From: Dehalococcoidia bacterium
GTDB taxonomy: Bacteria > Chloroflexota > Dehalococcoidia > Lucifugimonadales > UBA3495
DNA length: 64,000 bases
NCBI GenBank assembly: GCA_965218875.1
Contig: CBDCMJ010000001.1
Location: 2,840 to 66,839 of the forward strand
Direction of reading: 5' to 3'
Shown here: piece by piece, positions 14,370 through 50,653 of the stretch
Layout: every line of letters starts with the position of its first letter
Numbering within the stretch: position 1 is the stretch's first letter
Notes under the pieces: model-generated
The model's input: the letters and a program-made list of their open reading frames with translations, nothing else
Told to the model about the DNA's origin: nothing
The model's database searches: none
Program-made: the position numbers and the translations under genes

Positions 14370-14645
14370 ATGGAAGCATCAGTATCGAAGCGACGGAACA
14401 ACGGGGTGGACCTGCCGGAGGACTTCCCGGAGCGGTTGGAGAAATTCCGTGAGGTGTCCGGCCTGTCCTGGGGGGAGTTGGCGGGGTGCCTCAGGGTGGA
14501 CCACGAGCGGGTGAAGAGCTTGCGGAGGGGCGCACTGCCCGGGGACTCGATGATGCCGAACCTCATGCAGCTTGCCCAGCGGGTGCCTGGCGGAATGGAG
14601 GCCCTGTTCCCCAACGTGGTGAATACTCTCGGAACCGGGGAGTAG
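14370..14645 (+). CDS. HTH paralog 2
   Basis: An AAGGAGGAAA ribosome-binding site is present. LPEDFPERLEKFREVSGLSWGELAGCLRVDHERVKSLRRGALP..LAQRVPGG. Confidence 0.65.
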   Translation: MEASVSKRRNNGVDLPEDFPERLEKFREVSGLSWGELAGCLRVDHERVKSLRRGALPGDSMMPNLMQLAQRVPGGMEALFPNVVNTLGTGE

Positions 14646-19273: not shown

Positions 19274-21526
19274 CTAATGACGCGGCCCCGGCCGCCACTC
19301 GATTACCTCGGTCTCTTCGGGGGTGGCCTCGATGCGGATGGGGAAGCGGTTGCCCCTTGCCAGCAGCAGCCCGTCTCCCCGAGGACAGGACAGGAGCCAG
19401 CGTTGCAGCTCCACCGGCAGGTCGAAGGCTTCGCCCACGGTGCTGATGGCGGCGGCGTCCTGCTGCAACAGCAGCTTGAAGGCGGCGTTCTGGAGCAGCG
19501 CCCTGCCGGAGTGGCCGGTGATGGCGCGCGACGAGTCCTCGGAGAGCAGGTCCTGCACGTCCTGGGTGATGAACTGCAACCCCAGCCGGTGCTTGCGGGC
19601 GCGCTTGGCCATGCTGACCATGAATGCCGCCCCTTCGGGGTGCTGCATGATGCTCCACACCTCGTCCACCACCAGCAGGCGGGGCCGGGGGTCTTGGGCG
19701 GCGGCGGCCCATACCGTCTCGGTGCAGACCATCGCGGCGGCGGGACGCAGTTCCGGTTCCAGCAGGTGCAGGTCGAAGACGGTGACCAGGGCCTCGTGGG
19801 TCAGCAGGTCGTCGCCCTCGTCGGAGAGCAGGTGGCGCAGGCTACCGGTGGCGAAGGGCCGCAGCAGGTGGGCGATGTCGCCGCCCTCGGCTTCCAGGTA
19901 GGCGTAGAAGTCGCGGAATCCGGTGCGCTCCCTATGCTCGGCGTAGTAGCCCGCCAGGGCGTGATCCAAAGACGAGCGCCGCTCGGCGCTGAGCCGCTCC
20001 CCCACCATCACCTCGATGAGACGCCGCAGGCTGCCGATGCGCTGGAGCAGTTCCTCGCTGTCGCCCCGATCGATGACGAAGGGGTTCATGCCCTGCCCCG
20101 CGATTCCAGGGGACAGCACCCTCCCGCCGGCGGCGCGGGCCATGTCGGCGTACTCGCCCTCCGGGTCGATCACGTAGGCGCGCACGCCACGGCAGACGCC
20201 GCGCAGCACCCCCAGCTTGGTGGCGAAACTCTTGCCGCTGCCGGAACGGGCTAGGACGGCGGTGTTGGCATTCAGGTGGGTGCCGTCGAAGGGGTCGTAG
20301 ACGATGGGGGCGCAGGCCCGCAGGTCGATGCCGTAGAGAGTGCCGCTCCTGGTGTCCAGGTCCGGCGGCGAGAAGGGGAAGAGCCGCGCCAGCGACGACG
20401 TGTCCAGGGTCCGCCACACCGCCACGGCGTTGAGGCCCAGGGGCAGGGTGGACAGCAGGCCCTCGCGCTGCCGGAAGGCCAGGTTGTCCAGCTTGCCCAG
20501 GGTGGCGGCGAAGTGGGCGCGGGCCTTCTGGGTCAACTCCTTCAGCCCGTCGGCGTTGTCGGCGTGCAACGTCACCGACAGGGAGGCATGGAACAGCCGC
20601 TCCCGTCCCCGCTGTACTTCATCGCGCAAACGGCTCACGTCCTCCAGGGCGATCTCCGCCTCCGGCGACAGGCTGCGGCCCCGGTTCAGAGACAGGGATT
20701 GCGCCGACTCGAAGCGGACCTTCTGCCACTCCAGGGTGCGGGCGGCCTGCTCCGACGGAATGGCGCCCAGGTGGACCGACAGATCCATGGGCGCTCCGGC
20801 GGCCATCAGCCCCTGTAGGAAGCCCGGGGCCAGCAAGCGGGGCCACTTGCCCAGGTGCAGGGAGCGGGTCAGGTGGGCTCCGACGCGGATGTCGCGGCGG
20901 TTGATCTCCACCGCCAACTCTGTGTCTTCATCACGGTCAATGGGTGAACCCCCAAGGGCCGAGGCCAGCAGCAGGAGGCGCAGCGGTTCTCCTTTCAGGG
21001 GGAACACTCCCAGCCCGGCCCGGGCCAGCAGCCCACGCATCTCGTCGGCGCGGTTGTGTTCGCAGATGGCGTAGAAGCGCCGGTCCAGGATTCCCTCCCG
21101 GGATTCCAAGCCGGTCAGGAGCCGTCCCAGGGAGTCGGCGGCATCTCGGGTCTGCTGGGGCAGGTCCTCGGGCTGGGCTTGTTCAAGATTGGCCCGCAGG
21201 CTTTGAAACACCGGCGGGTGCTGGCGGACCAGCAGTTGCACCGGGAAGTCCAGGGCGTTCAACGAACCGGCGAAGGCCCCCAGCTTGGGCTCGTCCAGCT
21301 CCAACCCCATCACCTCCAGCACCCCCAGCTTCACCCCGTCCAGCCGCACCGGCCCGTCCTCTTCCAGGTGGGACAGCATGAAGAACAGGGACAGCGGGGG
21401 TGGCGGCTTGGGTTCCGCCGTCTCGGTGAGCTCGATGTCATTGGGTTGAATTTCCTCGGACGCTGCGGGATTTTCCTTCCTGCCGCGTCCGGCCAGCTTC
21501 TTCAGGTTGGGTAGTGTCGCTTTCAT
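19274..21526 (-). CDS. VirB4/TrbE-like conjugative ATPase (ICE copy A)
   Basis: Walker A ARSGSGKSF, Walker B RLLVVDEVWSIM, about 750 aa. It is the homolog of the partial ORF at 61942 onward. Confidence 0.85.
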   Translation of the reverse strand: MKATLPNLKKLAGRGRKENPAASEEIQPNDIELTETAEPKPPPPLSLFFMLSHLEEDGPVRLDGVKLGVLEVMGLELDEPKLGAFAGSLNALDFPVQLLVRQHPPVFQSLRANLEQAQPEDLPQQTRDAADSLGRLLTGLESREGILDRRFYAICEHNRADEMRGLLARAGLGVFPLKGEPLRLLLLASALGGSPIDRDEDTELAVEINRRDIRVGAHLTRSLHLGKWPRLLAPGFLQGLMAAGAPMDLSVHLGAIPSEQAARTLEWQKVRFESAQSLSLNRGRSLSPEAEIALEDVSRLRDEVQRGRERLFHASLSVTLHADNADGLKELTQKARAHFAATLGKLDNLAFRQREGLLSTLPLGLNAVAVWRTLDTSSLARLFPFSPPDLDTRSGTLYGIDLRACAPIVYDPFDGTHLNANTAVLARSGSGKSFATKLGVLRGVCRGVRAYVIDPEGEYADMARAAGGRVLSPGIAGQGMNPFVIDRGDSEELLQRIGSLRRLIEVMVGERLSAERRSSLDHALAGYYAEHRERTGFRDFYAYLEAEGGDIAHLLRPFATGSLRHLLSDEGDDLLTHEALVTVFDLHLLEPELRPAAAMVCTETVWAAAAQDPRPRLLVVDEVWSIMQHPEGAAFMVSMAKRARKHRLGLQFITQDVQDLLSEDSSRAITGHSGRALLQNAAFKLLLQQDAAAISTVGEAFDLPVELQRWLLSCPRGDGLLLARGNRFPIRIEATPEETEVIEWRPGPRH

Positions 21527-21547
21527 CGGTGAATCTCCTTTTTTCTT

Positions 21548-21895
21548 CTATGGGCCGGGCAGGACTTCGATGATCCGGCTGTTGAGCGCGGCGGCGATGC
21601 CCTTGGCCAGCAGCACCACCACCAGCCCGACCACGGCCATGATTACGGCGTTCCTGGCTTTTCCCCGCCCAGAACCTTCTCCCTCGGCGCCCTCGGCCAT
21701 CAGGACGAACCCCGCCCAGACGATGGCGAAGAAGCACAGGCCCACCCCGGCGTAGGCCATGCCGGTCAGCACCACGTCGAAGGCGGCCAGCATCCTTGCC
21801 TTCTCGTCCGGCGCGGCGGCGGCCACGGAGGCCAGCGCCGCACCGGAGGCGAGCAGGGTCTTTGCCACGCGCCCTACCACGGCCACCAGTCCCAC
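21548..21895 (-). CDS. Small integral membrane protein, T4SS-associated (GTG start)
   Basis: It aligns with 61576-61920 (..MLAAFD.VLTGMA.AGVGLC.FAIVWAGFVLMAEGAEGEG.GRGKARNAVIMAVVGLVVVLLAK). It overlaps the stop of the upstream ORF, as in copy B. Confidence 0.6.
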   Translation of the reverse strand: MGLVAVVGRVAKTLLASGAALASVAAAAPDEKARMLAAFDVVLTGMAYAGVGLCFFAIVWAGFVLMAEGAEGEGSGRGKARNAVIMAVVGLVVVLLAKGIAAALNSRIIEVLPGP

Positions 21896-23493
21896 CAGTT
21901 GGAATCGCCCACCGGCGTCTGCTCCGCCCTGGGCGGCGGGGGTGTGGGCGGTGGAACGTGCAGGGCCTCGTATGGGTCGTCGGCCCCCACGCCCAGAGCC
22001 TGCCCCGCACTTGATGCGGGGGCCGGGGCCAGGGGCGCCGTCTCCGGCCTGGTCCGGGTGACCGGAGCGCGCTGGGTCTCGACGGCCCGCACGTGCTCCG
22101 GGTGGTGGACGTAGATACGGACGGTCCTGGTCACCGAGGAACCCTCGCCGCAGGACAGGCTCACCCGCCGGGTATACACGTCGGTTCGGGCCGGGTGGTG
22201 GGTGGTCTGCAACATCGGAGGCAGCGGCACGTTCAGCGTCGCCGTAAGGTCCGCCGTGATTTCCAGGTTGTGGACCGCCTTCCTGTTGGCGACGGGCAGC
22301 CGGAACCGGGTCTCGCCGCCCGCGACGAAGGACACGCTGGCCCGGTGGCTTCCGGCGGCGACGTCGACCCTGCCAGCGATTCGGGTGACGCTGGCGTCCA
22401 GCAGGGCGGGGACGTTCTGGCTGAAGTGGCCGCCGTACACCGGCAGGTCCACCTCCTGGCGGGTCTCGGCGATACACTCCGAGGCGATGACGCCGGAGAT
22501 GCTGCCCGGCGTCCACTCCAGGGAGGTCAGCTCCAGGTCGCACAGCCCGCCGTCGGCCTGGGGCAGGGGGTAGGGTATCTGGCCGCTCTTCAGGGTCACC
22601 GCTCCGGACCGGCCCAGGGCGTCCAACCAGGAGAAGGTGAAGGACGGCGACGGGCCGTTCAGGGTCAGGTTGTAGCTCTTGCTCTGGCCCGCCGTCAGGC
22701 TGGTGTTGGCCCCCATCTTCAGGGTCCGGCCCGACCTGCCGCCGAAGACCCGCACCTTCAGGTCCAGGTCGTGGGCCGCCCGCAGGGTGACGGCGGCGGT
22801 GTCGCCGGAGACGGCGAGACGTTCGATGAAGATGCGCCGTCCCGGCACCGGCTCCGGCGGGACGAAGTAGATCTCGTCCAGCCGCCAGCCCGGGTCCTCG
22901 TCGGGGTCGTCGGCCAGGACGGCGCTGGGCAGCAGGACCACCGCCAGCAGGCCCAGCGCCGCCACCGCCAGGAAGCGGTTCCAGGGTTTCTTGCCCTTGG
23001 ATTCATGCTGGCTGGGGTTGGGGCCGTTGCCGCCGTCCCGGTTGCGGCGTTTGCCGAACCAGCTGTGGGGACGGAACGGTGCTCTCCCCTTCTTGCGGGC
23101 AGCCCTGACCCCCCGGCTCAAGCCGGAGGCGGCTTTCTTGGCCAGCAGCCGCAGCGGGTCGGGCCTGGCCTCCGGCGGGGCGGGCGGCTCGCTCTTGGTC
23201 ATTTCCAGCGGGGACCCGGCGTAGCGCCTGGCCCCCAGGTTGAACTTCAGCAGGTCGGCGGCCACCAGGGGCAGCCCCCGGCCTCCCACCTTGCCCACGG
23301 TCAGGGCAATTCCCACGACGCCGATCAGCACGCCAACCGCCAGGCGCACCGCCATCGGGCCGAAGGGCAGGTAGTGGAAGGCTCCGTAGGACACGGCGCA
23401 CACCGCCACCACCGCCACTATCTGGGGAAAGGTGAACCACAGCAGCACTTTATCCTCGGCCTGCACGTGGGTTGGGACTTCATGCTCTCTCAT
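21874..23493 (-). CDS. PrgI/VirB3-like N-terminal membrane domain protein with a large extracellular region
   Basis: MREHEVPTHVQAEDKVLLWFTFPQIVAVV is the PrgI-family start pattern. It has two to three TM segments followed by about 350 aa of beta-rich region. It is paired with 59975-61594. Confidence 0.65.
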   Translation of the reverse strand: MREHEVPTHVQAEDKVLLWFTFPQIVAVVAVCAVSYGAFHYLPFGPMAVRLAVGVLIGVVGIALTVGKVGGRGLPLVAADLLKFNLGARRYAGSPLEMTKSEPPAPPEARPDPLRLLAKKAASGLSRGVRAARKKGRAPFRPHSWFGKRRNRDGGNGPNPSQHESKGKKPWNRFLAVAALGLLAVVLLPSAVLADDPDEDPGWRLDEIYFVPPEPVPGRRIFIERLAVSGDTAAVTLRAAHDLDLKVRVFGGRSGRTLKMGANTSLTAGQSKSYNLTLNGPSPSFTFSWLDALGRSGAVTLKSGQIPYPLPQADGGLCDLELTSLEWTPGSISGVIASECIAETRQEVDLPVYGGHFSQNVPALLDASVTRIAGRVDVAAGSHRASVSFVAGGETRFRLPVANRKAVHNLEITADLTATLNVPLPPMLQTTHHPARTDVYTRRVSLSCGEGSSVTRTVRIYVHHPEHVRAVETQRAPVTRTRPETAPLAPAPASSAGQALGVGADDPYEALHVPPPTPPPPRAEQTPVGDSNWWDWWPW

Positions 23494-23506
23494 TCCATCC
23501 CTCCTT

Positions 23507-23779
23507 CTAGCTGTCGGTCGGGTCGGGCACGGTGGGGTCCACCGGGTTGCCCACCACGGCGTTCATCACCAGCTCAACGACGCCATAAGCGACGAGGGCC
23601 AGCACGATGCCGGCCAGGGCGGTCATCATGGCCGCCTTGCCCCGCTCCATCTGGTTGGGCGCTCCGGAGGCGGTGAGGTACATGTAGGCGCCGTAGATGA
23701 AATAGCCCACGCCGACGACGCCCACCAAACCCAGCAGGATGCCCACCAGGTTCGATATGGTCTGTGTCAGGTCGTCCAT
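23507..23779 (-). CDS. TrbC/VirB2-like pilin-type small membrane protein
   Basis: 90 aa with two hydrophobic helices flanking YMYLTASGAPNQMERGKAAM. It is nearly identical to 59668-59964. Confidence 0.6.
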   Translation of the reverse strand: MDDLTQTISNLVGILLGLVGVVGVGYFIYGAYMYLTASGAPNQMERGKAAMMTALAGIVLALVAYGVVELVMNAVVGNPVDPTVPDPTDS

Positions 23780-23931
23780 ACGGTTTTTCTCCTTTCAAAT
23801 TGGATTGCCCGATATGTGAATTGCGTTGCTGTGGTCGGCCCCAATCTGCTACTGGCACATGTCTCCACCTCCCGGGCGGTTCCGGCGCGAAACCTGTCCG
23901 CGCCGGTGGTTGTCGTCGTTCCGGTTGCTGG

Positions 23932-24912
23932 CTACGGCCCCTGGCTGCGGGGCGTCGGGCCGCTTTGGGCCGGGGAAGTGGAGTTCTGGGCCGCCGAGTT
24001 CACCGCTCCGGCGGCCGTGGTGGCGGCGGCGCTGGCTGCGCCGGTCGCCGCTGACGCGGCGGCAACTCCCGCCGGTCCTCCGGCAGCTCCACCGGCCAAC
24101 ATCCCCAGGGCGCGGCCAGAACGCACCACCGAGCCGGGCAGGGACATCCCGAAGTAGAGGGTGTGCAGCCAGGCGTCGAAGGTCCCGTGATGCCCCAGCA
24201 TCGAGGGCACCCGGCCCGCCAGGTACATGAAGGCGATGGCCATCAGCAGCTTCCACACCAGGTCCTCCGACGGCTCGAAAGCGGCGATGGCGGCGAAGTC
24301 CTCCAGAAAGGCGAAGGCCAGGGCCACGGCGATGAGCTGGATTGCCTGCTGGAACACCGTGGTCATGAACAGCCGGAGCCAGTGCTTTCCCCAACCGGCG
24401 GTGTGGGGCAGAATCCACAGCCCCAGGGCGATGGGCGCCAGGCAGAGCAGGATGTCAATCAGGGCCAGGCGCAGGATCATCTGCACCAGCAGGTAGAGGA
24501 CGAAGAAGCCGAAGACCAGGTAGAGCAGGGCGATGAACACCGCCAGGCCGGTGTTGGCGGTCTCGACGGCGGTCAGCAGCGGCTCCAGGGGAGCCCGCAG
24601 CAGGGCGCCGGGGGTCACGTCCAGGGAGACGGCGATGAACTGGGAGACGGCGTGGGCCACGTCGATGACCAGGGCGCACCACCAGAGGGACGACGCGGCG
24701 GCGGTGAGTCCCAGGACCAGCCGGGGCACCATCTCCCGCCAGCCCGACTGGTGGTGGCCCAGGTGCTCCTGGACGATGAAGCTCAGCCCCATCCAGCCCA
24801 GGATCACCGCCAAAGCGCCGGAGGTGATGGCCCAGACCACCATCCACGCCTGCTGGATGAAGGGATGCAGGTAGGTGAGTTCAGGAGGAGTTCCGGTGAG
24901 GATGTCCGTCAT
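23932..24912 (-). CDS. VirB6/TrbL-like polytopic membrane protein
   Basis: It has six or more hydrophobic segments and an Ala/Gly-rich tail. By eye it is about 97 percent identical to 58542-59522. Confidence 0.65.
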   Translation of the reverse strand: MTDILTGTPPELTYLHPFIQQAWMVVWAITSGALAVILGWMGLSFIVQEHLGHHQSGWREMVPRLVLGLTAAASSLWWCALVIDVAHAVSQFIAVSLDVTPGALLRAPLEPLLTAVETANTGLAVFIALLYLVFGFFVLYLLVQMILRLALIDILLCLAPIALGLWILPHTAGWGKHWLRLFMTTVFQQAIQLIAVALAFAFLEDFAAIAAFEPSEDLVWKLLMAIAFMYLAGRVPSMLGHHGTFDAWLHTLYFGMSLPGSVVRSGRALGMLAGGAAGGPAGVAAASAATGAASAAATTAAGAVNSAAQNSTSPAQSGPTPRSQGP

Positions 24913-24918
24913 ACGTCC

Positions 24919-25542
24919 CTACCCTCCCCGGCACTCGTCGAGGTCGCTGGCCGACACCTTCTGCACCACGCCGCACAGGGTCCCGTGGACTCCCTGGATG
25001 ACCCACTTGGCGGCGGCCCGGGCCCAGCGGTCGGGGTCGAGAGCGCCCAGCACCCGGTCCCACAACCCGTTGGGCTGGTGGACGGGAATCAGGGCGTGGA
25101 AGACGTGGTGGTCGCCGCCCCCGGTGCGCGGAACGGCCAGCACCAGGAGATATGCCTGCTCGGGGTGAAGCTCGGGCTGCTCGTCCAGGGCCGGGTACTC
25201 GAAGGTGTACTCCCAGCCTTCGGAGAGGTGCTTTTCGCCGCCCTGGACCCGGTAGGTATTGGTGAGCCAGTCGCCGGTGTCGGGGTGGCGGATGGAGTAG
25301 AACAGGACATCGGTCTTCCGGCTGAGGATGGGGCGGGCCACGAAGTCGCCCTCCTTCTTCCGCTCCACCATCTGCCGGTCCCGGTTGACCAGGGTGACGG
25401 AGTCGGTGTCGGGGGGCGGCGGGGACTGGGCCAGTGCCAGCCCAGAAGCAGGGATGGCAACGAGGGCCGTAAAGAGCAAAGCCCCTGCCAGGAGAATCAG
25501 GCGGCGGGCTTTGCCGGACCTGGGGATGAATCGGCGGAACAT
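24919..25542 (-). CDS. Secreted protein of the T4SS operon (signal peptide)
   Basis: MFRRFIPRSGKARRLILLAGALLFTALVAIPASGLALA is a signal peptide. It is the homolog of 57915-58535. Confidence 0.6.
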   Translation of the reverse strand: MFRRFIPRSGKARRLILLAGALLFTALVAIPASGLALAQSPPPPDTDSVTLVNRDRQMVERKKEGDFVARPILSRKTDVLFYSIRHPDTGDWLTNTYRVQGGEKHLSEGWEYTFEYPALDEQPELHPEQAYLLVLAVPRTGGGDHHVFHALIPVHQPNGLWDRVLGALDPDRWARAAAKWVIQGVHGTLCGVVQKVSASDLDECRGG

Positions 25543-25948
25543 GGTGGCCTCCTCGTCGGTGATGGGGACGTTTTGTCCCGCCGTCGAGTCTGACCACGCG
25601 GGGTGGGCTTACCAATGGCTTGTGAGGGGGGACTGTACGGAGGCCCCCCTCACGGGGCATCAACTTTCCGGGGCGCGGTGTGATGTTATGGGGGTGTACA
25701 GGGATTGGCAGGCAGCGACGCGAGTCCACGGTGGCCGGTTCATTCGGGAAACCGGCGGATTAGCTGCATTTCCGTTGCATTACAGCAAGCACTTGGGTAT
25801 TAGGGCTGGTTGCCAGGTTTCCGGCATCGCCCCCCTACAGGAATTGCAACCCTGTGGCCTGCTGGAGCGTTGTTGTCGTGCAAGCGCCCTGTGTCGAAAC
25901 CGCAACTTTGCGCCGGTGGTCATACCGCTGGCGCCGGGAGGTACGGAC

Positions 25949-26803
25949 ATGGAACGGAGCCGGAACGTGGAGGACCTGCACCACCTGCGTCTGATGGCGT
26001 TGCTGCACGAGCTGGTGCGGGAGCGGGACTTGAAGGGCGCGGCGGAGGCCCTGGGCCTGGACCCCAGGACGCTCAGCGCCAGCATGGACCGGGGGGCGTT
26101 GTCGGGGCTGGCCCAGGTGGCCCTGGAGCGGTGGCTGTTGGCCGAGGGGGACCGGGAGGCTGCCCAGGCCCGCGACGAGGTGCGGGAGCTGGCGGGGCGC
26201 GTGGACGGCGTTGAGCAGCGGGTTGACGGGCTGGCGGACGAGGTGGGCAAGGCAGTGGGGGAAGTCCAGCGGGTTGCCGAGGAAGCTGGCGGGAATGGCG
26301 CCGGGGATCGGGCGAGAGAATTGCAGCGGTTGGAGCGGCGGATGGACCGGCTGGAGTCAGCAGGCGGGGTTGGCGCCGGACGGGCCGGTGGGCCGCAGGC
26401 GACCGGAGCGGGGCGACGCCCGGCTCTGACAGGGATTGCGGCGTCCGCGCGGCGTTACCCCGACCTGGTTACCCGCGATGCCGACGCTGACGACGAGGAG
26501 GTCTTCGGCGACGCCTGGCCCTTGGTTGACGAATGGCGCGGCTTGTGGAAAGGCCACCCCGACCGGGTCAGGGGCCTGCGCTGGCTTGACACCGAGGCGC
26601 GCATCTTGGAGCTGGAGTTGGCGATGCTGGAGGAGCACGGCCTGACCCTGCCGCCGGAGACGGAGCCGCTGCGGGGGCTGGAGCGGAACGCCCAGCTGGG
26701 CTGGCGGCAGAAAGCACTGGCCGACACTCGCCGGAAGTTAGCCCGGCGGAGGGCGCTGCGCCGGCTTAGGCGGTTGCTCACCCTTGGGCTGTGGCGGCGG
26801 TAG
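25949..26803 (+). CDS. ICE-conserved regulator-like protein (N-terminal HTH-like segment, coiled-coil, conserved C-terminal domain)
   Basis: ..LKGAAEALGLDPRTLSASM.. and the C-terminal RRYPDLV..WPLVDEWRGLW..ILELELAMLEEHGLTLPPETEPLRGLERN are shared with 56667-57518. Confidence 0.55.
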   Translation: MERSRNVEDLHHLRLMALLHELVRERDLKGAAEALGLDPRTLSASMDRGALSGLAQVALERWLLAEGDREAAQARDEVRELAGRVDGVEQRVDGLADEVGKAVGEVQRVAEEAGGNGAGDRARELQRLERRMDRLESAGGVGAGRAGGPQATGAGRRPALTGIAASARRYPDLVTRDADADDEEVFGDAWPLVDEWRGLWKGHPDRVRGLRWLDTEARILELELAMLEEHGLTLPPETEPLRGLERNAQLGWRQKALADTRRKLARRRALRRLRRLLTLGLWRR

Positions 26804-27871
26804 CCGGCGCCGGCGCCGGGGTGAATCTCGGTGGTGCTTCATTGCCGCACCATTGCGGCTTCTTTGTTGCTTCATCTGGGCTGCTCACCGGCAAGTGATT
26901 GGGTTGACGATGCCAGATTTCGCCGAAAACCCCTTGCCGGAGGCTTTGCCGGGACCGGATACTAATTGGCGTTGTCAGGCTTTTTCCAGCGTTTCCCGCC
27001 CTAGAAACCTGGAGGGTCCCGTCCCTGGACCCGGGATCGGACGCATAGGATCGAGCATAGCTCTCCGAACGTCCGCCCATGTTGGACTGGCCGCATAGAG
27101 TTGAGCCTAGCTCCTCGAACGGTCGCCCACGAGGGAATTGCTGATGGGCTGGCGTGATTGAACGTCTCTCCCGAAGCAGGTAGACCCAACTCATCGAAGT
27201 GCAGGTGCGCTTCACCCGGAACACCAACCCAACGGCGTAACCCCTGACCCACGGACTGAACATCAAGGAGGTGGCAACCGGACAACAACGGCGTCCCGGA
27301 ATCCCTTTCCACGGTGGTACTCCAACCCCAAGGCCCATTCTAGTTTGCAAGGAGGTGGCAACCGGAGTAACAACGGCGTCCCGGAATCCCATTCCACGGC
27401 GGACCCCGAACCCACGGCAATCCCACTGACAGGAGGTGTCAGCTAGACCCAGCACGGTTTCTCCGGCGTCCCTTACCCCTTCGGCATCACCGGCGGAGCG
27501 GCTGACCTGCTTCGTCATCCCCACAATGCGGTTGGAGCGTGGATAACGCACCGGCCGCTTCAACACGACTGCGGCGTAGCTACTGAACAAGGGTAGCGGC
27601 ACCGCAGATTCAGCGCGCTCCGGTCGGCCAGCGGCGACAGACCGGACGCTTATCGTTCCAGTTCCAGCGCAGACTCCGTTGACCGGACTGCGTTCCTCTT
27701 GATTTCCCCTCACTTAGCAGCATCCCAGGCATAAGACCCTGGCCGGGCTGCGTCCTTCTCCAACCCCCAACCTGCGTTCTCCGTTGCGGTGTCTGACCCA
27801 GGGCGGAGTGCGTCCGGCGCCGGGCGTTGACCCTGTTTCCCAACGACGTTCGCAAACATAAGGAGGTGCTT
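26804..27871 (+). other. Conserved non-coding, repeat- and hairpin-rich region (candidate oriT, ssDNA promoter or structured RNA), ICE copy A
   Basis: It is homologous to 54224-55495 in inverse orientation, with indels that break every reading frame. It contains a 65-nt block identical in both copies (26972-27036) and 51/52-nt direct repeats (27264-27314, 27348-27399). The hairpin at 27569-27607 carries a compensatory change. Confidence 0.6.
27264..27399 (+). repeat. Two 51/52-nt direct repeats, 84 nt apart, each starting CAAGGAGGTGGCAACCGGA
   Basis: CAAGGAGGTGGCAACCGGA(C/GT)AACAACGGCGTCCCGGAATCCC(T/A)TTCCACGG occurs at 27264-27314 and 27348-27399. Neither has a plausible start codon or ORF after the SD-like AAGGAGGTG. 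Confidence 0.7.
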
Positions 27872-28177
27872 ATGCGCATCAGGGACAGACTCGTTCAAAT
27901 CAAAGCCGTCGCGGTGGCGGTTGGCAGCTTCATCAGCCGGCACAAGCGGGCGTCGATTGCGGTTGGCGTAGCGTTGCTCATCGCCGGGCCGCTGCTCACG
28001 GGGACCGGCGGCGAGACCTTTTTCCTCAACCTGGTGGGCCTCGGCATCGTCGCCCTCGTCGTCCGGCGGATTGTGCGGGCCAACGAGAGGCGGCAGGCGG
28101 CGCAGGCCCGGCAGGCCAATTGCCGGTGCCGGTGTCATAGGCAGCAGCAAACTCAGCAACAAGGAGGCACTCCATGA
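27872..28177 (+). CDS. Small membrane protein (ICE-conserved)
   Basis: An AAGGAGGTG ribosome-binding site is present. MRIRDRLVQIKAVAVAVGSFISRHKRASIAVGVALLIAGPLL parallels MRITERLNQLKTTAVAVGGFIGGHRRLFIAVAAVLLIGGPL at 54044-54223. Confidence 0.6.
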   Translation: MRIRDRLVQIKAVAVAVGSFISRHKRASIAVGVALLIAGPLLTGTGGETFFLNLVGLGIVALVVRRIVRANERRQAAQARQANCRCRCHRQQQTQQQGGTP

Positions 28178-28644: not shown

Positions 28645-29688
28645 CCAACGCCACGGTGGACATCGCGGAACTCAAGGCCCGCCACCCCCTGGGCGACGCG
28701 GTGGAGGCCGCCGGTGTCGTTCTGCGGGGCAAGGGCCGGGTCAGGCAGGGCGTCTGCCCCTTTCACGAGGAAGCCGAGGGCAGCTTCACGGTGTACGCCG
28801 ACACGGAAAAGTTCTACTGCTTCGGTTGCGGGTCCCGGCGGCGACGTGCTGGACTTCGTGCAACGGATGGAGGGCCTGAGCCTGCCCGAGGCGATACGGC
28901 GGCTGGACGGCGGTTCCCCGCCGGTTACGGCCGCTGCGGTTCGTCCGGCGGCAGCTCGTCAACCCGCTGCGCCTGCGATTCCTCCCCGCGATCCGGCGCT
29001 GCTGACGGCGGCGGTACGTTTCTACACCGGCCAATTGCGGCGCAACATCAGGGCCAGAGAGTACCTGGCCTCGCGGGGCATTGGCCTGGAAGCTGCCGCA
29101 AGGCTGGGCCTGGGCTACGCACCGGGGCGCGGCCTGCGGGCTTATCTGGAATCTGCCGGATACGGCGAAGACCGGATACGCGCCTCGGGGCTGTTCCTGG
29201 AACGGGGCGCAGAGCGGTTCGCTGGAATGATTGCCGTCCCCGACATCGCCTCGGGCCGGGTGGGCTGGCTCACCGGGCGGGCGGTTGATGCGGGCGCAAC
29301 GCCCCGCTTCCAGGCGGTGCCCGGCCCCAAACCGGTGCTGGGGTTGGCCCGTATCGGCCCGGCGCCCCCCTTCGCAATCCTGGCCGAAGGGGTCTTCGAC
29401 TACCTGACGCTGGCGGCCTGGGGCTACCCCGCCTGCGCCGCCCTGGGCACCCAGGGGCTGGACAAGGTGGCGGCGGCGCTCCGGGGCTGCCCAAGAGTCT
29501 TCCTGGCCTTCGACAACGACGGCGCCGGTGTGGCTGCCGCCGAGGGTCTCTGGGGACTGCTGGGCCGCCGCGCCGCCGTGGTCAACATGCCCCAGGGCAT
29601 CGCCGACGTGGGCGAACTGGCGACGCTGCGCCACGGTCAACTCATCTTCCGCCGACTGCTGGCAAGGGCGGCGCACAACGCCCGCTAG
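28635..29688 (+). pseudogene. DnaG-like primase (CHC2 zinc finger plus Toprim) with a +1 frameshift near 28832
   Basis: CPFHEEAEGSFTVYADTEKFYCFGCG lies in one frame and GGDVLDFVQRMEGLSLPEAIRRL.. plus the Toprim-like ..AILAEGVFDYL..FLAFDNDGAG in the next. An extra C in TCCCGGCGGC accounts for the shift. Confidence 0.75.
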
Positions 29689-29895
29689 TCCACTCCCTCT
29701 CCCCCAACCCTCTCCTCTACCGGCCCGCCTTCCCCGGCGGGCCTTCGCGTTTTCAACCACTCTCCTACTGATCCCCTTGGGCTACACCTGCCCATCTCCC
29801 GACGGGGCCTCCCGCCCCGCCGACGGCTTCCAGTGCCGGAAGCCGCACGAACGCCCATCACCCACGGAATTACAACTTCTGCAAGGAGATACGTC

Positions 29896-30777
29896 ATGTC
29901 CAACGAGAACGGCAACGGCAACCACCGCAACGGCGCGAACAACAACGGGCACCAGCGCAACGGCCAGGTCAACGGCAGCGCGAACAGCCACCAGAACGGC
30001 AACGCCAACCACGACATCCCCGCCAACGGCGTGTCCAAGAACGGCAGCAACAACGGCAACGGGCACCAGCCCGCCGACTCCATTCCCGCCCACGACCTCC
30101 TCTGGGACTCCCTGCCCGCCAGCGTCACCGAGAAGCTGGCCCGGCCCCTGGACGCCAGCCTGGTCTCCCAGCGCAGGGGCCGGGGCAACCGGAGTTTCAG
30201 CTACGTCGAGGGCCGCACCGCCATCGACCAGGCCAACCGCATCTTCGGGTTCGGCGGCTGGGGCCACGAGGTGGTGGGCGACGTGCTGCTCAGGGAGCTG
30301 GACCAGGTGAACACCCAGACCGGCGAGGTCAAGCGCATCCGGGCCTACTCCGCCACGGTGAAGGTCACCGTCCCCGGCGCGCCGCCCCGCACCGACGTGG
30401 GTTTCCAGCCGGTCTCCGACGAGACCGCCGAGGGGCATGAGACTGCGTTCAAGGGCGCGGTCACGGACGCTCTCAAGCGGGCGCTCAGGACCTTCGGCGC
30501 CCAGTTCGGCAACGCGCTCTACGGCGACGTGGCAGGCCAGCCCGCCGGCGGCGCCGGCGACACGCTGGCCCCGGCCCTGCGCAAGACCCTGCTGGACCTG
30601 GGGGTCAGCCAGGGCTTCGACGAGGAGAGGGTGCGCCAAGCGGTGCGGGGGCAGACGGGCAAAGACCTGGACGAGCTGCCCGCCTCGGAGCTCACGCCCC
30701 TGGTGGAGCGGGCCGCCCGTAAGGTGCAGCAGCGGCAGGATGCGGAGGCGGGTCAGAACAGCGGCGCCGAACAGTAG
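29896..30777 (+). CDS. Rad52/Rad22-type single-strand annealing protein
   Basis: RSFSYVEGRTAIDQANRIFGFGGWGHEV..KRIRAYSATVKV..GHETAFKGAVTDALKRALRTFG is the Rad52/22 core. The N-terminus is a low-complexity NG-rich segment. An AAGGAG ribosome-binding site is present. Confidence 0.75.
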   Translation: MSNENGNGNHRNGANNNGHQRNGQVNGSANSHQNGNANHDIPANGVSKNGSNNGNGHQPADSIPAHDLLWDSLPASVTEKLARPLDASLVSQRRGRGNRSFSYVEGRTAIDQANRIFGFGGWGHEVVGDVLLRELDQVNTQTGEVKRIRAYSATVKVTVPGAPPRTDVGFQPVSDETAEGHETAFKGAVTDALKRALRTFGAQFGNALYGDVAGQPAGGAGDTLAPALRKTLLDLGVSQGFDEERVRQAVRGQTGKDLDELPASELTPLVERAARKVQQRQDAEAGQNSGAEQ

Positions 30778-30883
30778 ACCTTCCGGCTAACTGGCAACCA
30801 ACCAGGCAATGGGGCCGTTCCCTGACAACAGGGGCGGCCCCGCTTCTCATCTACCGGACCAAACAACACAAGGAGGAAACGAC

Positions 30884-31204
30884 ATGACCGGAACCAGGAT
30901 GCACACCCCCTGGGGCTACCCCCAGGACATCGAGGAACTGGCCGAAGGGGTCTGGCGGGTCTCCACCGCCGGCCACGGCGGGTTGAAGCTGAGCCGGGAG
31001 CGGTGGAAGGAACTGCCCGACTTGGTCAGGGACTCCTTCCTCAACCCGACCTACGCGGAAGAGGACTGCGAGGAACCCATCGCCAGGACGCTGCTGGGCA
31101 TCGGCGACGAAAGGGAGCGGGAGTTCGCCATCAGGGTGGCGAACTGCTTCCAGCGGTACGCACCGGCGCTGCCCTACCTGCAAGAACAGAGAGGTGCGAA
31201 ATGA
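30884..31204 (+). CDS. Small conserved ICE/plasmid protein (HTPWG..STAGHGG motif, DUF7007-like)
   Basis: MHTPWGYPQDIEELAEGVWRVSTAGHGGLKLSRERW. An AAGGAGGAAA ribosome-binding site is present. Confidence 0.5.
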   Translation: MTGTRMHTPWGYPQDIEELAEGVWRVSTAGHGGLKLSRERWKELPDLVRDSFLNPTYAEEDCEEPIARTLLGIGDEREREFAIRVANCFQRYAPALPYLQEQRGAK

Positions 31205-31602
31205 CCAACGTTACGACCCGCCCCAGGCCCCGCAGCCTGCCCAGCGTTACGACCAAGCTGGCAACGGAACTGGGCAACCTCTACGTAACCGTCTGCCTGG
31301 ACGAGGACGGAAACCCCTTCGAGGTCTTCGGCTCTCTCGGCAAGGCCGGAAGCCTCCAGCACGGGGTCACGGAGCTCGCCTGCCGCCTGGTCTCCCTGCA
31401 CCTGCGGCGGGGCACTCCCATCGACGAAATCGTGGACCAGTGCCAGGGCATCAGCGAAATGCAGCCCTGGCCCAACGTGATGGAGGACGGCAGCACGGTG
31501 TACGTGCGCGGCCTCGGCGACGGCATCGCCCTCATCCTGCGGGGCCACCTGGAAGCACGGGACGAGGTGGAAATGGCAGACCTCAAGCTGGCCGCCGACT
31601 GA
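31201..31602 (+). CDS. TSCPD-like domain protein (resembles the class II ribonucleotide reductase C-terminal domain)
   Basis: LGNLYVTVCLDEDGNPFEVFGSLGKAGSLQHGVTELACRLVSLHLRRGTPIDEIVDQCQGI. It shares an ATGA overlap with the upstream gene. Confidence 0.45.
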   Translation: MTNVTTRPRPRSLPSVTTKLATELGNLYVTVCLDEDGNPFEVFGSLGKAGSLQHGVTELACRLVSLHLRRGTPIDEIVDQCQGISEMQPWPNVMEDGSTVYVRGLGDGIALILRGHLEARDEVEMADLKLAAD

Positions 31603-31701
31603 CCGCCGAACCCGACCTGCCAAGGCGCACGGGGCCGTCTCCCACGGGGAGCGGCCCCGCTCTCATTTACCCAACACAGACATGACGGAGGAAGGACAAC
31701 C

Positions 31702-32760
31702 ATGACGACGACCATTGACAGCAAGACGGACGTCTACTCGCGGCCCAACGCCCGCTTCGGCGAGGACGGGACCCTGGAGATCCGGGCCTCGGCGGTGGGC
31801 AACTGCCGCCGCGCCCTCTGGTACGAGGCCAACCAGTACCCGGTCACCAACGCGCGCACCGAGGAGTCCCTGACCGTCCTGGAGGCGGGCAACGCCCTGG
31901 AGCCGGTGGTGCTCCGGGCCATGCGGCGGGCCGGTTGGGAGATTGACGCCACTGACCGGGACAACCCTGAAATGATGTCCCTGCGCCTCGGCCCGACGCT
32001 GGTGGTCACGGGCCACGTGGACGCCACCGGCGTCGTCCCCATCTTCGGCGATGAACCCAGCGTCATCGAGATCAAGACCCGGGGGCCGGAAGCCTACAAG
32101 CGGTGGTGGAAGTTGGGCGCGGAGCGCAGCCACCCGGAGTCGGTGGCCCAGGCCGCCTTCTACTCCTACGGGACCTTCGGCGAGGCGCGGGACGTGGTGA
32201 TTGCCACCATGGACACCGGCTCCAGGCAGTGGGATTTCGAGGTGATTCCGGCGGAGCGGGTCGCCACCGCCTTCCACCGGGCCTGCGAGCGGCTGGGGAC
32301 CATCGGCGCCCACCGCCTGCTGCACGGGCGGGACTCGCAGGCCCTGCCGGAGCGGGACTTCACCGCCGACGACTGGCAGTGCCAACGCTGCCCCTTCCTG
32401 AACACCTGCCTGCCGGGGTCGGCGGCGGTCGAGGAGCCGGAGGACGAACCCGCCGCGGATACGGAGCCGGTGACCGACGACGAGGCGCAGGCGGCGCTGC
32501 GGGAGTACGAGAACGCCCAGGAGATGCTGAAGGCCATCGAAGAGGACAAGCAGTGGGCCTTGGGTATGCTGCGGGGCTGGCTCAAGCAGCAGGGCAAGGA
32601 CAAGGCCAAGCTGGAGGGCCGGGAGAAGACCCGCACCGTGGGGATGGTCAAGTCCACCCGCTACAACGTCGATCACAAGAGGCTGAACGCGCTGCTGGAG
32701 CCGGAAAACAGGGCGACCATCGTCACCGAGAACGTCTCCGAGTACCTGCGGGTCAGCTAG
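31702..32760 (+). CDS. PD-(D/E)XK nuclease (YqaJ/Cas4-like exonuclease)
   Basis: ..GHVDATGV..SVIEIKTRG gives the D..ExK motif. The CQRCPFLNTC cysteine cluster follows, then an acidic linker. It is adjacent to the annealase and SSB genes. Confidence 0.6.
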   Translation: MTTTIDSKTDVYSRPNARFGEDGTLEIRASAVGNCRRALWYEANQYPVTNARTEESLTVLEAGNALEPVVLRAMRRAGWEIDATDRDNPEMMSLRLGPTLVVTGHVDATGVVPIFGDEPSVIEIKTRGPEAYKRWWKLGAERSHPESVAQAAFYSYGTFGEARDVVIATMDTGSRQWDFEVIPAERVATAFHRACERLGTIGAHRLLHGRDSQALPERDFTADDWQCQRCPFLNTCLPGSAAVEEPEDEPAADTEPVTDDEAQAALREYENAQEMLKAIEEDKQWALGMLRGWLKQQGKDKAKLEGREKTRTVGMVKSTRYNVDHKRLNALLEPENRATIVTENVSEYLRVS

Positions 32761-32874
32761 GACAACCCTGACGCTCCCCTGCGGAGCGCAAACGGGGCCG
32801 CTCTCCAATACCGGAAGGCGGCCCCGCTATTCATTCGGGAAACTATCAATCACACCTGACACGGAGGAACGATC

Positions 32875-33342
32875 ATGGCGAAGAGCATCAACAAGGTGGA
32901 ACTGCTGGGCCGTGTGGGCGCGGACCCTGAGATGAAGTACACGGCGTCCGGCATCGCCGTCACCCAGCTGCGCCTGGCCACCGACCGGGTGCGCAAGGGC
33001 GGCGAGTCCGAGACCGACTGGCACAGCATCGTGGTGTGGGACAAGCTCGCCGAAGCCTGCGCCAACTACGTGGAGAAGGGCCAGCGGCTCTACGTCGCGG
33101 GCCGCCTGGCGCAGAACTCCTGGACCGGCGACGACGGGCAGCGGCGCTACCGCACCGAGATCCACGCCCAGGAGGTGGTGTTCCTGGACTCCGCCCGCAA
33201 CGGCGGCGGCGGCAACCACTCCGGCAACGGCTCTGCCAACGGGGTCAACGCCGGCGCCAACCACCAGGCCAACGCCGGAAACGCCAACGGAATCGACACT
33301 GGCGGTGGTTACCAGCCCGGCGACGAGGACTCTCCCTTCTGA
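32875..33342 (+). CDS. ssb: Single-stranded DNA-binding protein
   Basis: INKVELLGRVGADPEMKYTASGIAVTQLRLATDR..WHSIVVWDKLAE..YVAGRLAQNSW, a Gly/Asn-rich linker, and an acidic tip DEDSPF. Confidence 0.9.
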   Translation: MAKSINKVELLGRVGADPEMKYTASGIAVTQLRLATDRVRKGGESETDWHSIVVWDKLAEACANYVEKGQRLYVAGRLAQNSWTGDDGQRRYRTEIHAQEVVFLDSARNGGGGNHSGNGSANGVNAGANHQANAGNANGIDTGGGYQPGDEDSPF

Positions 33343-33448
33343 CCGGACATCCGAACACCGACGCCCTCCCAAAGGCGCACGACGGGGCCACTCCCAATCA
33401 CGGGAGCGGCCCCGCTTCCGTTTCCAGACGAATCCGAAGGAGTCAACC

Positions 33449-34009
33449 ATGCCCCGCAAGAAGCAAGCCAAGCAAGAGGAAATGCCCCTGTCCATCCCCG
33501 GACCCGCCGCTCCCGCCACCCCTGAGGGCCAGGCCGTGCTGGAAGCCCTGCGCTCCAACTTGGCCCTGCTGGGGGAGCTGGCGGCCCGCTACGACGTGGC
33601 CTTCCAGACGGAGCGCCCCGCCGACAGGCCGCAGATCAACTGTCCCCAGGATGTCCACACCCTGCTGGCCCCGGAGATGGGCGCCCTGGCCCAGGAGCAG
33701 CTCAGGGTGCTGCTGCTCAACACCCGCAACCAGGTGATGGGCCAGCGGGTCGTCTACCAGGGCAACGTCAACAGCTCTATCGTCCGGCCCGCCGAGGTGC
33801 TGCGCGCCGCCGTCATCGAGTCGGCGCCCAGCATCATCATCGCCCACAACCATCCCAGCGGCGATCCGACGCCCAGTCCCGAGGACGTGTCCATCACCCG
33901 CGACCTGGTCCAGGGCGGAAAGCTGCTGGGCATCGACCTGCTGGACCACGTCGTCATCGGCGGCGACCGGTGGGTCAGCCTCAAGGAACGGAAGCTGATG
34001 GACGACTAG
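33449..34009 (+). CDS. radC: RadC-like JAB/MPN domain protein
   Basis: HNHPSGDPTPSPEDVSITRDLVQGGKLLGIDLLDHVVIG is the JAMM signature. Confidence 0.85.
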   Translation: MPRKKQAKQEEMPLSIPGPAAPATPEGQAVLEALRSNLALLGELAARYDVAFQTERPADRPQINCPQDVHTLLAPEMGALAQEQLRVLLLNTRNQVMGQRVVYQGNVNSSIVRPAEVLRAAVIESAPSIIIAHNHPSGDPTPSPEDVSITRDLVQGGKLLGIDLLDHVVIGGDRWVSLKERKLMDD

Positions 34010-34105
34010 CCGTCGCTTCCACAGAGACCGGCGGAGCGGCGCCGGTCCTCACGGGGGAAAGCACTCCCCCGCTCCCTGCCCATTCACACCTACAGGAGGC
34101 AACCC

Positions 34106-34780
34106 ATGATTCCCACGCAACCCGTCCAGAGCGGCGAGGGCCTCTACACCATCAGCGCCGGAGGCTACTCGGCAACCGCCGACGCCTTCGCCCGCGACCC
34201 GGACACCGGCGGCCTCTGGTTCCTCTCCATGGTGGGGCCGCAGACCGCCCTCAAGGCCATCTGGGCCTCCCTGCTCAAGCAGCCCCCGGACACCGCCTAC
34301 ATCATCAAGGGCGTGGAGGGCATGGCCCTCTCCGGCGGCTACCAGCGGTGCCAGGTCCCCCATCACACCGTCGGCACCTGGACCACACGCATCGCGCGGC
34401 TGCCCGCCAGCCGGGGCTGGCACGCATTGGTCTACACGCGCCTGGCCGAGTTTTCTTTCGAGCGGGACGACTTCTTGCTGCTGGCCCAGGAACAGGCCGA
34501 CGCCCCAACGCTGCACCACCGCTTCCTGGACCGGCGCAGCCCCCTGCCCCTGCACCGCTCCTGGCGGGACTGGCTCTGGCGGCGGGGACTGGACACCGGC
34601 GAGACCGTCCCCCTGGAGTCCGCCGGGCTGCTGGCCTACACCTGCAATCCCAAGGGGGAGGAACTCAAGGCCGACCTGTCGGCGGCGGTTGCGGCGGGGA
34701 CGCTGACCCTCAACCCCGACGGCGGCGATCACAACGATGACACCAATGACACCAATAAGGAGGAAGACAGCGATGGATAG
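34106..34780 (+). CDS. Hypothetical protein (224 aa)
   Basis: The ORF has coding-like composition and an acidic, low-complexity tail. I recognise no motif. Confidence 0.45.
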   Translation: MIPTQPVQSGEGLYTISAGGYSATADAFARDPDTGGLWFLSMVGPQTALKAIWASLLKQPPDTAYIIKGVEGMALSGGYQRCQVPHHTVGTWTTRIARLPASRGWHALVYTRLAEFSFERDDFLLLAQEQADAPTLHHRFLDRRSPLPLHRSWRDWLWRRGLDTGETVPLESAGLLAYTCNPKGEELKADLSAAVAAGTLTLNPDGGDHNDDTNDTNKEEDSDG

Positions 34781-35183
34781 GACGCTGAACCCGGTGAAGC
34801 GGGGCAACAAGCGCCGCCGCGCCCGCAACTGGAAGGCCTGGCAGCTCTTCTCCCCGGACGGCGACAGGTGCCGCTTCTGCGAGCATGACCACACGACCCA
34901 CCTGACAAGCTCAGGGCAGCCCCATTTCTACCAGCCCGCCGCCGAGGAGGACTGGCGGAACTCCAACGAGAAGCTCTACCGCCACGAGCTGGAGGACGGT
35001 TCCGAGGTGCTGGTCAAGCGCGTCACCGTCGCCAGCCGCGCCGAGCTGCTCACCGCCTTCTGCACCGCCTGCGCCGCCGACAAGGACACCTCGCAAGTGC
35101 TCTGCTTCCAGCGGAATCTGGCCAAGGGCGAGGTGGTGGGCCTGAAACACCACGTCAACGGCAACCACAACGACGGGAGGTAG
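34773..35183 (+). CDS. Hypothetical Cys/His-containing protein
   Basis: An AGGAGGAAG ribosome-binding site is present. It has a basic N-terminus and the pairs CRFCEHDH and C..C. Confidence 0.4.
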   Translation: MDRTLNPVKRGNKRRRARNWKAWQLFSPDGDRCRFCEHDHTTHLTSSGQPHFYQPAAEEDWRNSNEKLYRHELEDGSEVLVKRVTVASRAELLTAFCTACAADKDTSQVLCFQRNLAKGEVVGLKHHVNGNHNDGR

Positions 35184-35187
35184 CATC

Positions 35188-35457
35188 ATGGCCGGCAAGC
35201 AGACCCTGTACTTTCCCTGCCCCGGCTGCGGGGCGCGGTTCGCCCAGGTGGAGGAGACCGACGAGGACATCCACGCCGGGGAGACCTACCACTGCACCGA
35301 GTGCGGCGCGGCGGTGGTCTTCGTGGCCCTGAACATGGAGATGCTGGCCGACCCCGCCGTCATCCGGTGGGGCTGCCACTTCTGCAAGCCTGGTCCCTGC
35401 CGGTTGGCTCCGTCCAGCAGCGGGGCCGATGATTCACCCGACGCCGATACCAATTAG
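35188..35457 (+). CDS. Small zinc-ribbon protein
   Basis: CPGCGARF..YHCTECGAAV gives two CxxC pairs. Confidence 0.45.
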   Translation: MAGKQTLYFPCPGCGARFAQVEETDEDIHAGETYHCTECGAAVVFVALNMEMLADPAVIRWGCHFCKPGPCRLAPSSSGADDSPDADTN

Positions 35458-35471
35458 AAAGGAGGACCGAC

Positions 35472-50640: not shown

Positions 50641-50653
50641 GCGCAGCCGACAG

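Follow-up and report, generated by a model that had tools for sequence, protein, structure and literature searches.

The 64,000-nucleotide stretch analysed here (the window; Dehalococcoidia bacterium, contig CBDCMJ010000001.1, G+C content 65.7%) contains two related integrative conjugative elements (ICEs), element 1 and the inverted element 2, which runs past the window end. Both carry the same 65-nucleotide block at the very start of a stretch free of open reading frames (ORFs). Comparative sequence evidence gives good support to the block as a structured RNA on the strand of the genes behind it, and it is tentatively read as the 5' domain of a leader RNA that heads the regulatory and establishment genes of these ICEs and may cause antitermination of RNA polymerase in cis, in the manner of the put RNA of phage HK022. 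The antitermination function of its double hairpin is putative and drawn by analogy; the block probably controls polymerase read-through into the genes behind the leader.

An earlier note on this DNA had reported that positions 26972-27036 (+) are the exact reverse complement of 55246-55310, and had proposed a cis-acting site under strong local constraint, to be abandoned if the identity proved to extend uniformly over kilobases. Within the 64-kb window all of the 65 positions match (65/65), pairwise alignment of both copies extends the perfect run to 68 nucleotides (26969-27036), and no match to the block appeared in 100 shuffles of the window (0/100). Identity between the two copies is 0.30 over 26822-26921, 0.66 in the 50 nucleotides just upstream of the block that hold the promoter (26922-26971), 1.00 in the block, 0.69 in the next 100 nucleotides (27037-27136), approximately 0.50 over the rest of the leader (27137-27871) and 0.48 in the first small ORF; at 0.69 per base, the arithmetic chance of 65 matches in a row is about 3e-11. 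The identity is local, because the sole kilobase-scale similarity of the two elements (19459-25554 versus 64000-57903, 88%) stops approximately 1.4 kb before the block. Similarity between the copies begins at the promoter, and the block boundaries fall on promoter and hairpin ends. The adjoining regulators, described as differing at about half of their residues, are 48% identical, and the two adjacent hairpins described there are present as P1 and P2 (Table 1).

The exact 35-nucleotide core of the block was found at 34 loci in approximately 22 metagenome-assembled genomes (MAGs) of Dehalococcoidia/Chloroflexota, one species each, and the remaining 30 nucleotides of the block, which lay outside the search key, are likewise nearly invariant. 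Conservation over the locus peaks at the block, where mean pairwise column identity is 0.96-1.0, versus 0.3-0.5 in the flanking genes. All loci share a layout in which the regulator gene is followed by the block, a further 0.6-1.3 kb and one of three gene sets: a small membrane protein with a primase/Rad52/SSB operon, a regulator with multiple helix-turn-helix (HTH) domains, or a paralogue of the upstream regulator; the block always has the same orientation as the downstream genes. An unbiased sample of 25 loci, chosen through the regulator protein alone, comprised 19 metagenome loci (31-54% identical to the regulator alignment) and six ENA/Tara contigs (one from Tara Oceans) that encode a more distant regulator subfamily. 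With nhmmer and a covariance model, nearly all of the 19 metagenome loci and 6/6 contigs proved to have a block homologue downstream of that gene, in most cases approximately 60-250 nucleotides away. Because block homologues follow the regulator in loci chosen by protein, a short, recent and functionless recombination or conversion tract between co-resident elements is a very improbable source of the identity, even though both elements reside in one genome with type IV secretion system (T4SS) modules 88% identical, and one MAG holds at least ten copies, so that exchange is possible. Such a tract is also at odds with near-invariant sequence in the elements of approximately 22 species and in metagenome loci, one of them on a Tara Oceans scaffold, with the compensatory changes by which distant copies keep their structure, and with boundaries that coincide with promoter and hairpin ends. 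The cis-acting constraint proposed earlier thus holds over approximately 60 independent copies.

Comparative alignment of 54 distinct upstream regions places a hexamer of the form nA(T/C)A(C/A)T at 6-7 nucleotides before the block (5 in one copy) in every one of them (54/54), with GATACT itself in 36, and a second hexamer (TTGnnn/TTCCCT) 17-18 bp upstream of the first in 52/54. The pair can be summarised as TTGCCR-N18-GATACT; the spacer is free in sequence, and in well-aligned copies the block invariably opens with a purine (G or A). The motif thus has the -35 and -10 hexamers, the 16-19 bp spacing, the A2 and T6 of the -10, and a start 6-8 nucleotides downstream, of a sigma-70-type promoter. 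A generic promoter scan missed the window promoters because they score 8/12 against its E. coli consensus (threshold 9/12); conservation over 54 copies is taken to override this negative result, and the motif is a predicted promoter. With a conserved promoter 6-7 nucleotides upstream, the block would therefore represent approximately +1 to +65 of a transcript starting at or beside G26971 or G55311. Since the copy-1 regulator gene ends in a terminator-like hairpin, the leader evidently has a promoter of its own. The earlier suggestion that the block might itself be a promoter is displaced by this arrangement, in which the promoter sits just upstream of the block and not inside it.

Folding with RNAalifold and of single sequences yielded P1 (10 bp with one bulge) and P2 (6 bp), which abut within a unit of 65-68 nucleotides. 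The conserved unpaired parts are the 5' tail GUUGUCnGGCUUUU (approximately 14 nucleotides of single strand), GCC in the P1 loop and UCCC in the P2 loop. In the close family both hairpins are invariant except for C-to-U changes that keep G-U pairs. Independently sampled relatives have compensatory variants of P1 (CCGAG/CUCGG and CCAGC/GCUGG; also the G-U variant GUUUC/GAAAU) and variants of P2 (GGGUUC/GAACCC, GGGCA/UGCCC and GUGC/GCAC), the latter with double changes in 3/6 pairs (UA to CG; CG to GC, AU or UA). In the alignment 96% of P1 cells are paired, and for P1 and P2 together, over 41 distinct sequences, 93.1% of cells pair versus at most 56.5% when the partner is slid by one column; double changes affect 5/16 pairs, and the covariation score was reached by none of 500 shuffles (0/500). 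Hairpins P3 and P4, which follow the block, also covary, alternating between CG, AU, GU and UG and between GC and AU. Non-Watson-Crick cells favour G-U over A-C by 20:3 in P1 and P2, 12:3 in P3 and P4, and 32:6 in total. This asymmetry therefore places the constraint on the sense strand, and it is what would be expected if that strand functions single-stranded, not of a duplex protein site or of the complementary strand.

Against the same evidence may be weighed a DNA operator, in which the P1 inverted repeat (CCAG-GTTTC N8 GAAAC-CTGG) would be bound by the adjacent HTH/coiled-coil regulator or the multi-HTH protein and would act as a roadblock or activator site, its hairpin potential being a by-product of dyad symmetry. 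The gene of an HTH and coiled-coil regulator lies almost always directly upstream, P1 is a near-perfect dyad whose sequence itself, beyond pairing, is nearly invariant, and overlapping DNA and RNA constraints would account for 65 invariant bases. An operator is nevertheless unlikely: the 32:6 excess of G-U among single-arm changes is not predicted for a double-stranded site, P2, P3 and P4 vary freely in sequence with their pairing kept, and the regulator falls to approximately 35% identity with no corresponding change in P1, an unusual pattern if a protein and its operator co-evolve. Because P1 is near-invariant next to a regulator so diverged, its partner is suggested to be a host component that evolves slowly (RNA polymerase or an elongation factor), not the element's own regulator.

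A pseudoknot between the P2 loop (UCCCU) and a conserved GAGGGA motif is tentative. Two compensatory and two wobble cases favour it, the compensatory ones being in L043 (UUCCUUC/GAAGGAA) and L025/L030 (CCCC/GGGG), but L017, L020 and L021 have single mismatches and the homologous position of the motif is uncertain. Other candidates were rejected: long-range pairing of the 5' tail UGUCAG with an invariant CUGACA at approximately +460 finds its partner in a subset of leaders only, and a leader peptide within the block would have no conserved start codon (TTG is missing in AGUUUC-type variants). GGCUUUUU was also considered as a possible boxA-like sequence.

Second, diverged copies of the 5' domain occur within one element in L001, L032, L034, L009, L017, L026 and L035, arranged as listed in Table 1. 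A regulatory cascade is suggested because diverged copies each precede a different regulatory gene (the regulator paralogue, then the multi-HTH gene). An exhaustive covariance-model scan of the window found two copies only, both before non-T4SS genes, and no copy at the T4SS operon.

This multiplicity bears on the possibility that the block acts as single-stranded DNA in transfer or replication, either as an origin of transfer (oriT) hairpin with a nic site for the Replic_Relax protein or as a single-strand origin or initiation (sso/ssi) priming site for the primase, which is quite improbable. Such a site would suit the position of the block between the T4SS module and leading-region-like genes (primase, SSB, RadC, methyltransferase) and the nearby primase gene of copy 1, and strand-specific G-T tolerance in hairpins is expected of single-stranded DNA sites as well. 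One oriT per element is the rule, however, and these elements hold two or three copies of the block, in tandem or before different regulatory genes; copy 2-type elements have a regulator, not a primase, after the block; the Replic_Relax gene lies approximately 10 kb away; and a double-stranded-DNA-type promoter with a variable spacer is kept at a fixed distance. The constrained strand is also the mRNA-sense strand, whereas a site on the transferred strand would be expected on the other one; in F-like leading regions the transferred strand is the template strand for early genes. The block is thus not a single, relaxase-adjacent site independent of transcription signals. On these grounds (several co-oriented copies, a distant Replic_Relax gene, promoter-type conservation upstream) the nic or relaxosome site among the roles listed in the earlier note is disfavoured, and the ribo-regulatory core also listed there, with its promoter-coupled 5' end and covarying hairpins, is the best fit.

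Behind the block, the predicted leader extends for 0.6-1.5 kb over the family without an ORF, forms multiple hairpins, and is richer in C (approximately 0.35) than in G (approximately 0.27). It includes two long, weakly folding zones with C/G ratios of 1.3-2.7, resembling Rho utilization (rut) sites in composition. Small hairpins recur along it, and a non-initiating GGAGGUGGCAACCG motif is conserved. Tandem repeats are present inside both leaders (27264-27334 and 27348-27418 in copy 1; 54969-55138 in copy 2); each unit in copy 1 contains a non-initiating motif, AAGGAGGUGGCAACCGG, that resembles a Shine-Dalgarno (SD) sequence, and the number of units is 1-3 across elements.

In copy 2 a strong intrinsic terminator (53833-53876) lies 1.47 kb past the predicted start and abuts the SD of the next gene, being followed by GGAGG, 7 nucleotides and ATG (53820). 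The same terminator is found at the same junction in L013, L026, L032, L033 and L034. Because there is no room for a promoter between terminator and gene, the multi-HTH regulator gene can, to judge from this layout, only be expressed via terminator read-through. Copy 1 has rut-like zones only, and the arrangement of promoter and then terminator is thus found in part of the family.

It is rather unlikely, though the evidence accommodates it well, that the same 5' domain of the leader RNA serves another role, as a protein or small-RNA platform for stability, processing or translation, or as the sensor of a Rho-dependent attenuator. The promoter, the covariation and the G-U bias apply equally to such roles, the C-rich loops with their conserved UCCC look like loops whose partners are G-rich or SD-like sequences, and the leader offers conserved non-initiating GGAGGUGGCAACCG motifs, a possible partner of the P2 loop in its GAGGGA motif, and rut-like zones. 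They are less easily reconciled with a 5' end that is single-stranded for approximately 14 nucleotides and has no protective 5' stem, with the 0.6-1.5 kb between the block and the translation starts to be regulated, or with pairings of which one (5' tail with CUGACA) is not conserved and the other (the pseudoknot) has counter-examples.

In the put-like antitermination that is tentatively preferred, transcription would start at or next to G26971 or G55311 from a sigma-70-type promoter, and the nascent RNA would open with approximately 14 unpaired nucleotides (GUUGUCnGGCUUUU), fold into two hairpins that abut, and run on as an untranslated C-rich leader of 0.6-1.5 kb before the regulatory and establishment genes. 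The double hairpin would act in cis on the elongating RNA polymerase, like HK022 put, and the modified polymerase would resist termination, crossing the rut-like leader and the intrinsic terminator before the downstream gene. Several points weigh against this mechanism. The transcript and its start site are themselves predictions from sequence, and a rut-like composition is no more than suggestive. The alignment, having been fitted with a covariance model, leans towards the modelled structure, and P1 is so invariant that few events support its covariation; that invariance could also come from an overlapping DNA-level site. No sequence or covariance-model relation to put, EAR or any Rfam family was found.

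Whether the block belongs to a new class of polymerase-modifying antiterminator RNA, in which a double hairpin at +1 and a leader of approximately 1 kb would license each stage of a regulatory cascade, is more doubtful, and can be offered as a possibility. If true, put-like systems would for the first time be known from outside the lambdoid phages, and conjugative elements of Chloroflexota would have their first described regulatory RNA; the cascade so controlled would be that of an ICE lineage, as yet undescribed and very abundant, in sponge-associated and marine Chloroflexota. With approximately 60 natural variants, compensatory mutations and a clear terminator target, the mechanism would be directly testable in a new phylum, and the covariance model (R1) is a compact marker with which to find and delimit this widespread family of Chloroflexota symbiont ICEs. 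Because some genomes carry ten or more copies, it is conceivable that co-resident elements could have their regulation coupled through the identical leader domains they share.

Table 1. Coordinates of the block, its predicted signals and hairpins, and associated genes (positions in the window unless a locus is named).
Feature	Position	Strand	Remarks
Block, copy 1	26972-27036	+	5' tail (G)UUGUCAGGCUUUUU, hairpin P1, hairpin P2, GGGA
Block, copy 2	55246-55310	-	P1 55269-55297, P2 55250-55268; P3 next at 55208-55243
-35-like TTGCCG, copy 1	26934-26939	+	comparative alignment of upstream regions
-10-like GATACT, copy 1	26958-26963	+	predicted start G26971, 7 nt downstream
-35-like TTGCCG, copy 2	55343-55348	-	comparative alignment of upstream regions
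-10-like GATACT, copy 2	55319-55324	-	predicted start G55311
Hairpin P1	26985-27013	+	UCCAG-c-GUUUC / loop CCGCCCUA / GAAAC-CUGGA
Hairpin P2	27014-27032	+	GGGUCC / loop CGUCCCU / GGACCC; UCCC motif kept in loop
Hairpin P3	27039-27074	+	GGACG..GGA-UC-GAGC-aua-GCUC-UCC..CGUCC; pair 72-103 CG22/AU5/GU4/UG2
Hairpin P4	27089-27124	+	repeats P3 architecture; pairs 153-169 and 154-168 swap GC/AU in 6-7 sequences
CAC-GAGGGA-AUU motif, conserved	27128-27139	+	tentative pseudoknot partner of P2 loop
Predicted untranslated leader, copy 1	26971-27871	+	~900 nt
Predicted untranslated leader, copy 2	54224-55311	-	~1.09 kb; C/G ratio up to 2.7
C>G low-structure zones, copy 1	~27150-27470 and ~27650-27760	+	composition and folding
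Distal domain closing helix, copy 1	27551-27561 / 27802-27826	+	long-range CCGGCYGC...GCGCCGG, G-U-type variation
First ORF after leader, copy 1	27872-28177	+	101-aa small membrane protein, SD AAGGAGGUG
Short ORF after leader, copy 2	54044-54223	-	59 aa
Strong intrinsic terminator, copy 2	53833-53876	-	15-bp GC-rich stem, ~-31 kcal/mol, followed by UUUCUGCGUUUU (U-tract)
Multi-HTH (XRE x3-4) regulator gene	52567-53832	-	SD GGAGG 53828-53832, ATG 53820
Regulator gene, copy 1	25328-26803	+	HTH and coiled coil; conserved ~270-aa part is the 3' portion
Terminator-like hairpin after copy-1 regulator gene	26844-26859	+	upstream of leader promoter
Regulator gene, copy 2	56667-57653	-	48% identical to copy-1 regulator
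Extra gene between copy-2 regulator and promoter	55496-56626	+	376 aa, copy 2 only
Replic_Relax gene	15019-16659	-	~10 kb from block
Tandem copy 366 nt upstream of main copy	L001 3569-3637(-), L032 3207-3275, L034 422-490
Copy before regulator paralogue and another before multi-HTH gene	L009 4330-4393(-), L017 219-284(-), L026 3071-3138
One copy either side of regulator	L035 1048-1110 and 3378-3442

Gene calls in the window, made by analysis of third-position G+C (GC3) by frame and by Pfam, identify the elements as ICEs by a tRNA-Ile, a serine recombinase, and Replic_Relax, TrwB/TraG-like, VirB4/TraC-like, T4SS_pilin and TrbL/VirB6 proteins. The minus strand of element 1 encodes the Replic_Relax protein, the coupling protein, VirB4, the pilin and VirB6; its plus strand carries the regulator gene, approximately 900 nucleotides without a credible ORF, the small membrane protein and the primase operon, so that regulator and T4SS genes diverge from opposite strands. 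In element 2 a short ORF comes after the ORF-free stretch, and behind it the protein with several XRE-type HTH domains. Element 1 adjoins the tRNA-Ile (10039-10112); the region 10039-13325 also includes a large serine recombinase and an ImmA/IrrE-type metalloprotease/XRE repressor pair, an ICEBs1-like induction module. Direct repeats downstream of the Replic_Relax gene (14076-14188 and 14413-14525, 72% identical) are a candidate for the true oriT region. The operon behind the copy-1 leader (28714-36506) is a phage-like recombination/establishment module of DnaG/Toprim primase, Rad52-type annealase, DUF7007, Cas4/RecE-like exonuclease, SSB, RadC and DUF6094 methyltransferase genes. The product of the extra gene in copy 2 has been assigned to no family, and L003 has an 81% identical homologue in the corresponding position.

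The regulator family has more than 800 members, and no match to it was obtained in Pfam, NCBIfam, PHROGs or a PDB sequence search; Foldseek with its AlphaFold model (pLDDT 68) gave just a weak, uninformative match to an XRE-type HTH. Among the ICE ORFs no antiterminator-like protein (NusG/KOW, Q or ConAn1-like) was recognised at the domain level, ConAn1 homology not having been searched directly. Between the two elements lie a 2877-codon ORF of tandem repeats of approximately 290 nucleotides (70-89% identical) followed by a fibronectin-type-III protein (42007-51560), which may be cargo or a host surface protein, and a hybrid protein with GAF, histidine kinase, receiver and OmpR-type output domains (39385-41823, minus strand), which is either cargo or a host gene.

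The MAG CBDBDE01 (contigs 1-3) has at least ten exact 35-nucleotide cores in one genome, each in an ICE-like context (L004, L005, L008, L009, L016, L017, L019, L024 and L026), an unusually high load of related elements. A Tara Oceans scaffold (L054) and ENA contigs (L055-L059) share the same synteny of pilin-TrbL-x, regulator, RNA, small ORFs and primase, and the element family therefore may not necessarily be restricted to sponge symbionts.

Searches for known relatives were negative: in Rfam 15 only a tRNA passes the gathering score in the whole window, and at E<=5 the leader has only a chance snoRNA match on the other strand; neither the leader, compared with PLSDB plasmids by blastn, nor the block region, compared in this way with 50,697 phage records among which HK022-like lambdoid phages should be represented, gave a match, and the anchored block pattern had none in IMG/VR viral contigs. 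No description of these Chloroflexota elements was found in the literature. RNA polymerase is rarely reprogrammed by a cis-acting RNA; put, EAR, conAn2 and canT are the cases known to us, and all come from phages infecting Proteobacteria or from Firmicutes. The target of put on RNA polymerase is the beta' zinc-binding domain.

The put RNA (putL/putR) of the lambdoid phage HK022 is a double hairpin of approximately 65 nucleotides that acts in cis on RNA polymerase and allows read-through of intrinsic and Rho-dependent terminators (PMC8632103). The block resembles it in size, in its two adjacent hairpins, in lying shortly after promoters of early operons and before terminators, and in having more than one copy per element. 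It differs in having no detectable sequence similarity, in its Chloroflexota ICE host as opposed to an enterobacterial phage, and in that its domain starts at +1 with approximately 1 kb of further conserved, structured leader behind it.

Among conjugative elements, conAn2 of pLS20 is a cis-acting structured antitermination RNA of 260-600 bp in which a GC-rich stretch and stem-loops are needed; it stands at the start of the conjugation (T4SS) operon, behind the conAn1 gene, depends on the ConAn1 protein for long-range action, and is widespread although poorly conserved in sequence between elements of different hosts (PMC8191782). The block is likewise a structured RNA region of a conjugative element, with antitermination here putative, but its RNA heads regulatory/establishment operons and not the T4SS operon, and no ConAn1-like protein was recognised. 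The canT element of Tn916 (452 nucleotides, several stem-loops) is orientation-specific, cis-acting and processive, probably an RNA antiterminator, and overcomes an insulating terminator after excision (PMC11658703). The block is similarly a candidate cis-acting RNA of an ICE with several stem-loops, whereas canT is without a defined 65-nucleotide invariant 5' domain; in sequence the two were compared via the Rfam and BLAST negatives only. A 456-nucleotide untranslated operon leader of pLS20 is reported to control elongation by 'zipper-type' attenuation (PMC13401043); it resembles the leaders described here as a long untranslated leader at an operon start of a conjugative element, and differs in organism and sequence. 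With oriT sites the block shares a conserved, non-coding inverted repeat between transfer genes and leading-region-type genes, but it is promoter-coupled, present in several copies per element, always sense to the downstream genes, and has no adjoining relaxase gene. By sequence, position or partner proteins the element is a member of none of the known leader-RNA elongation controls, although it would work like them.

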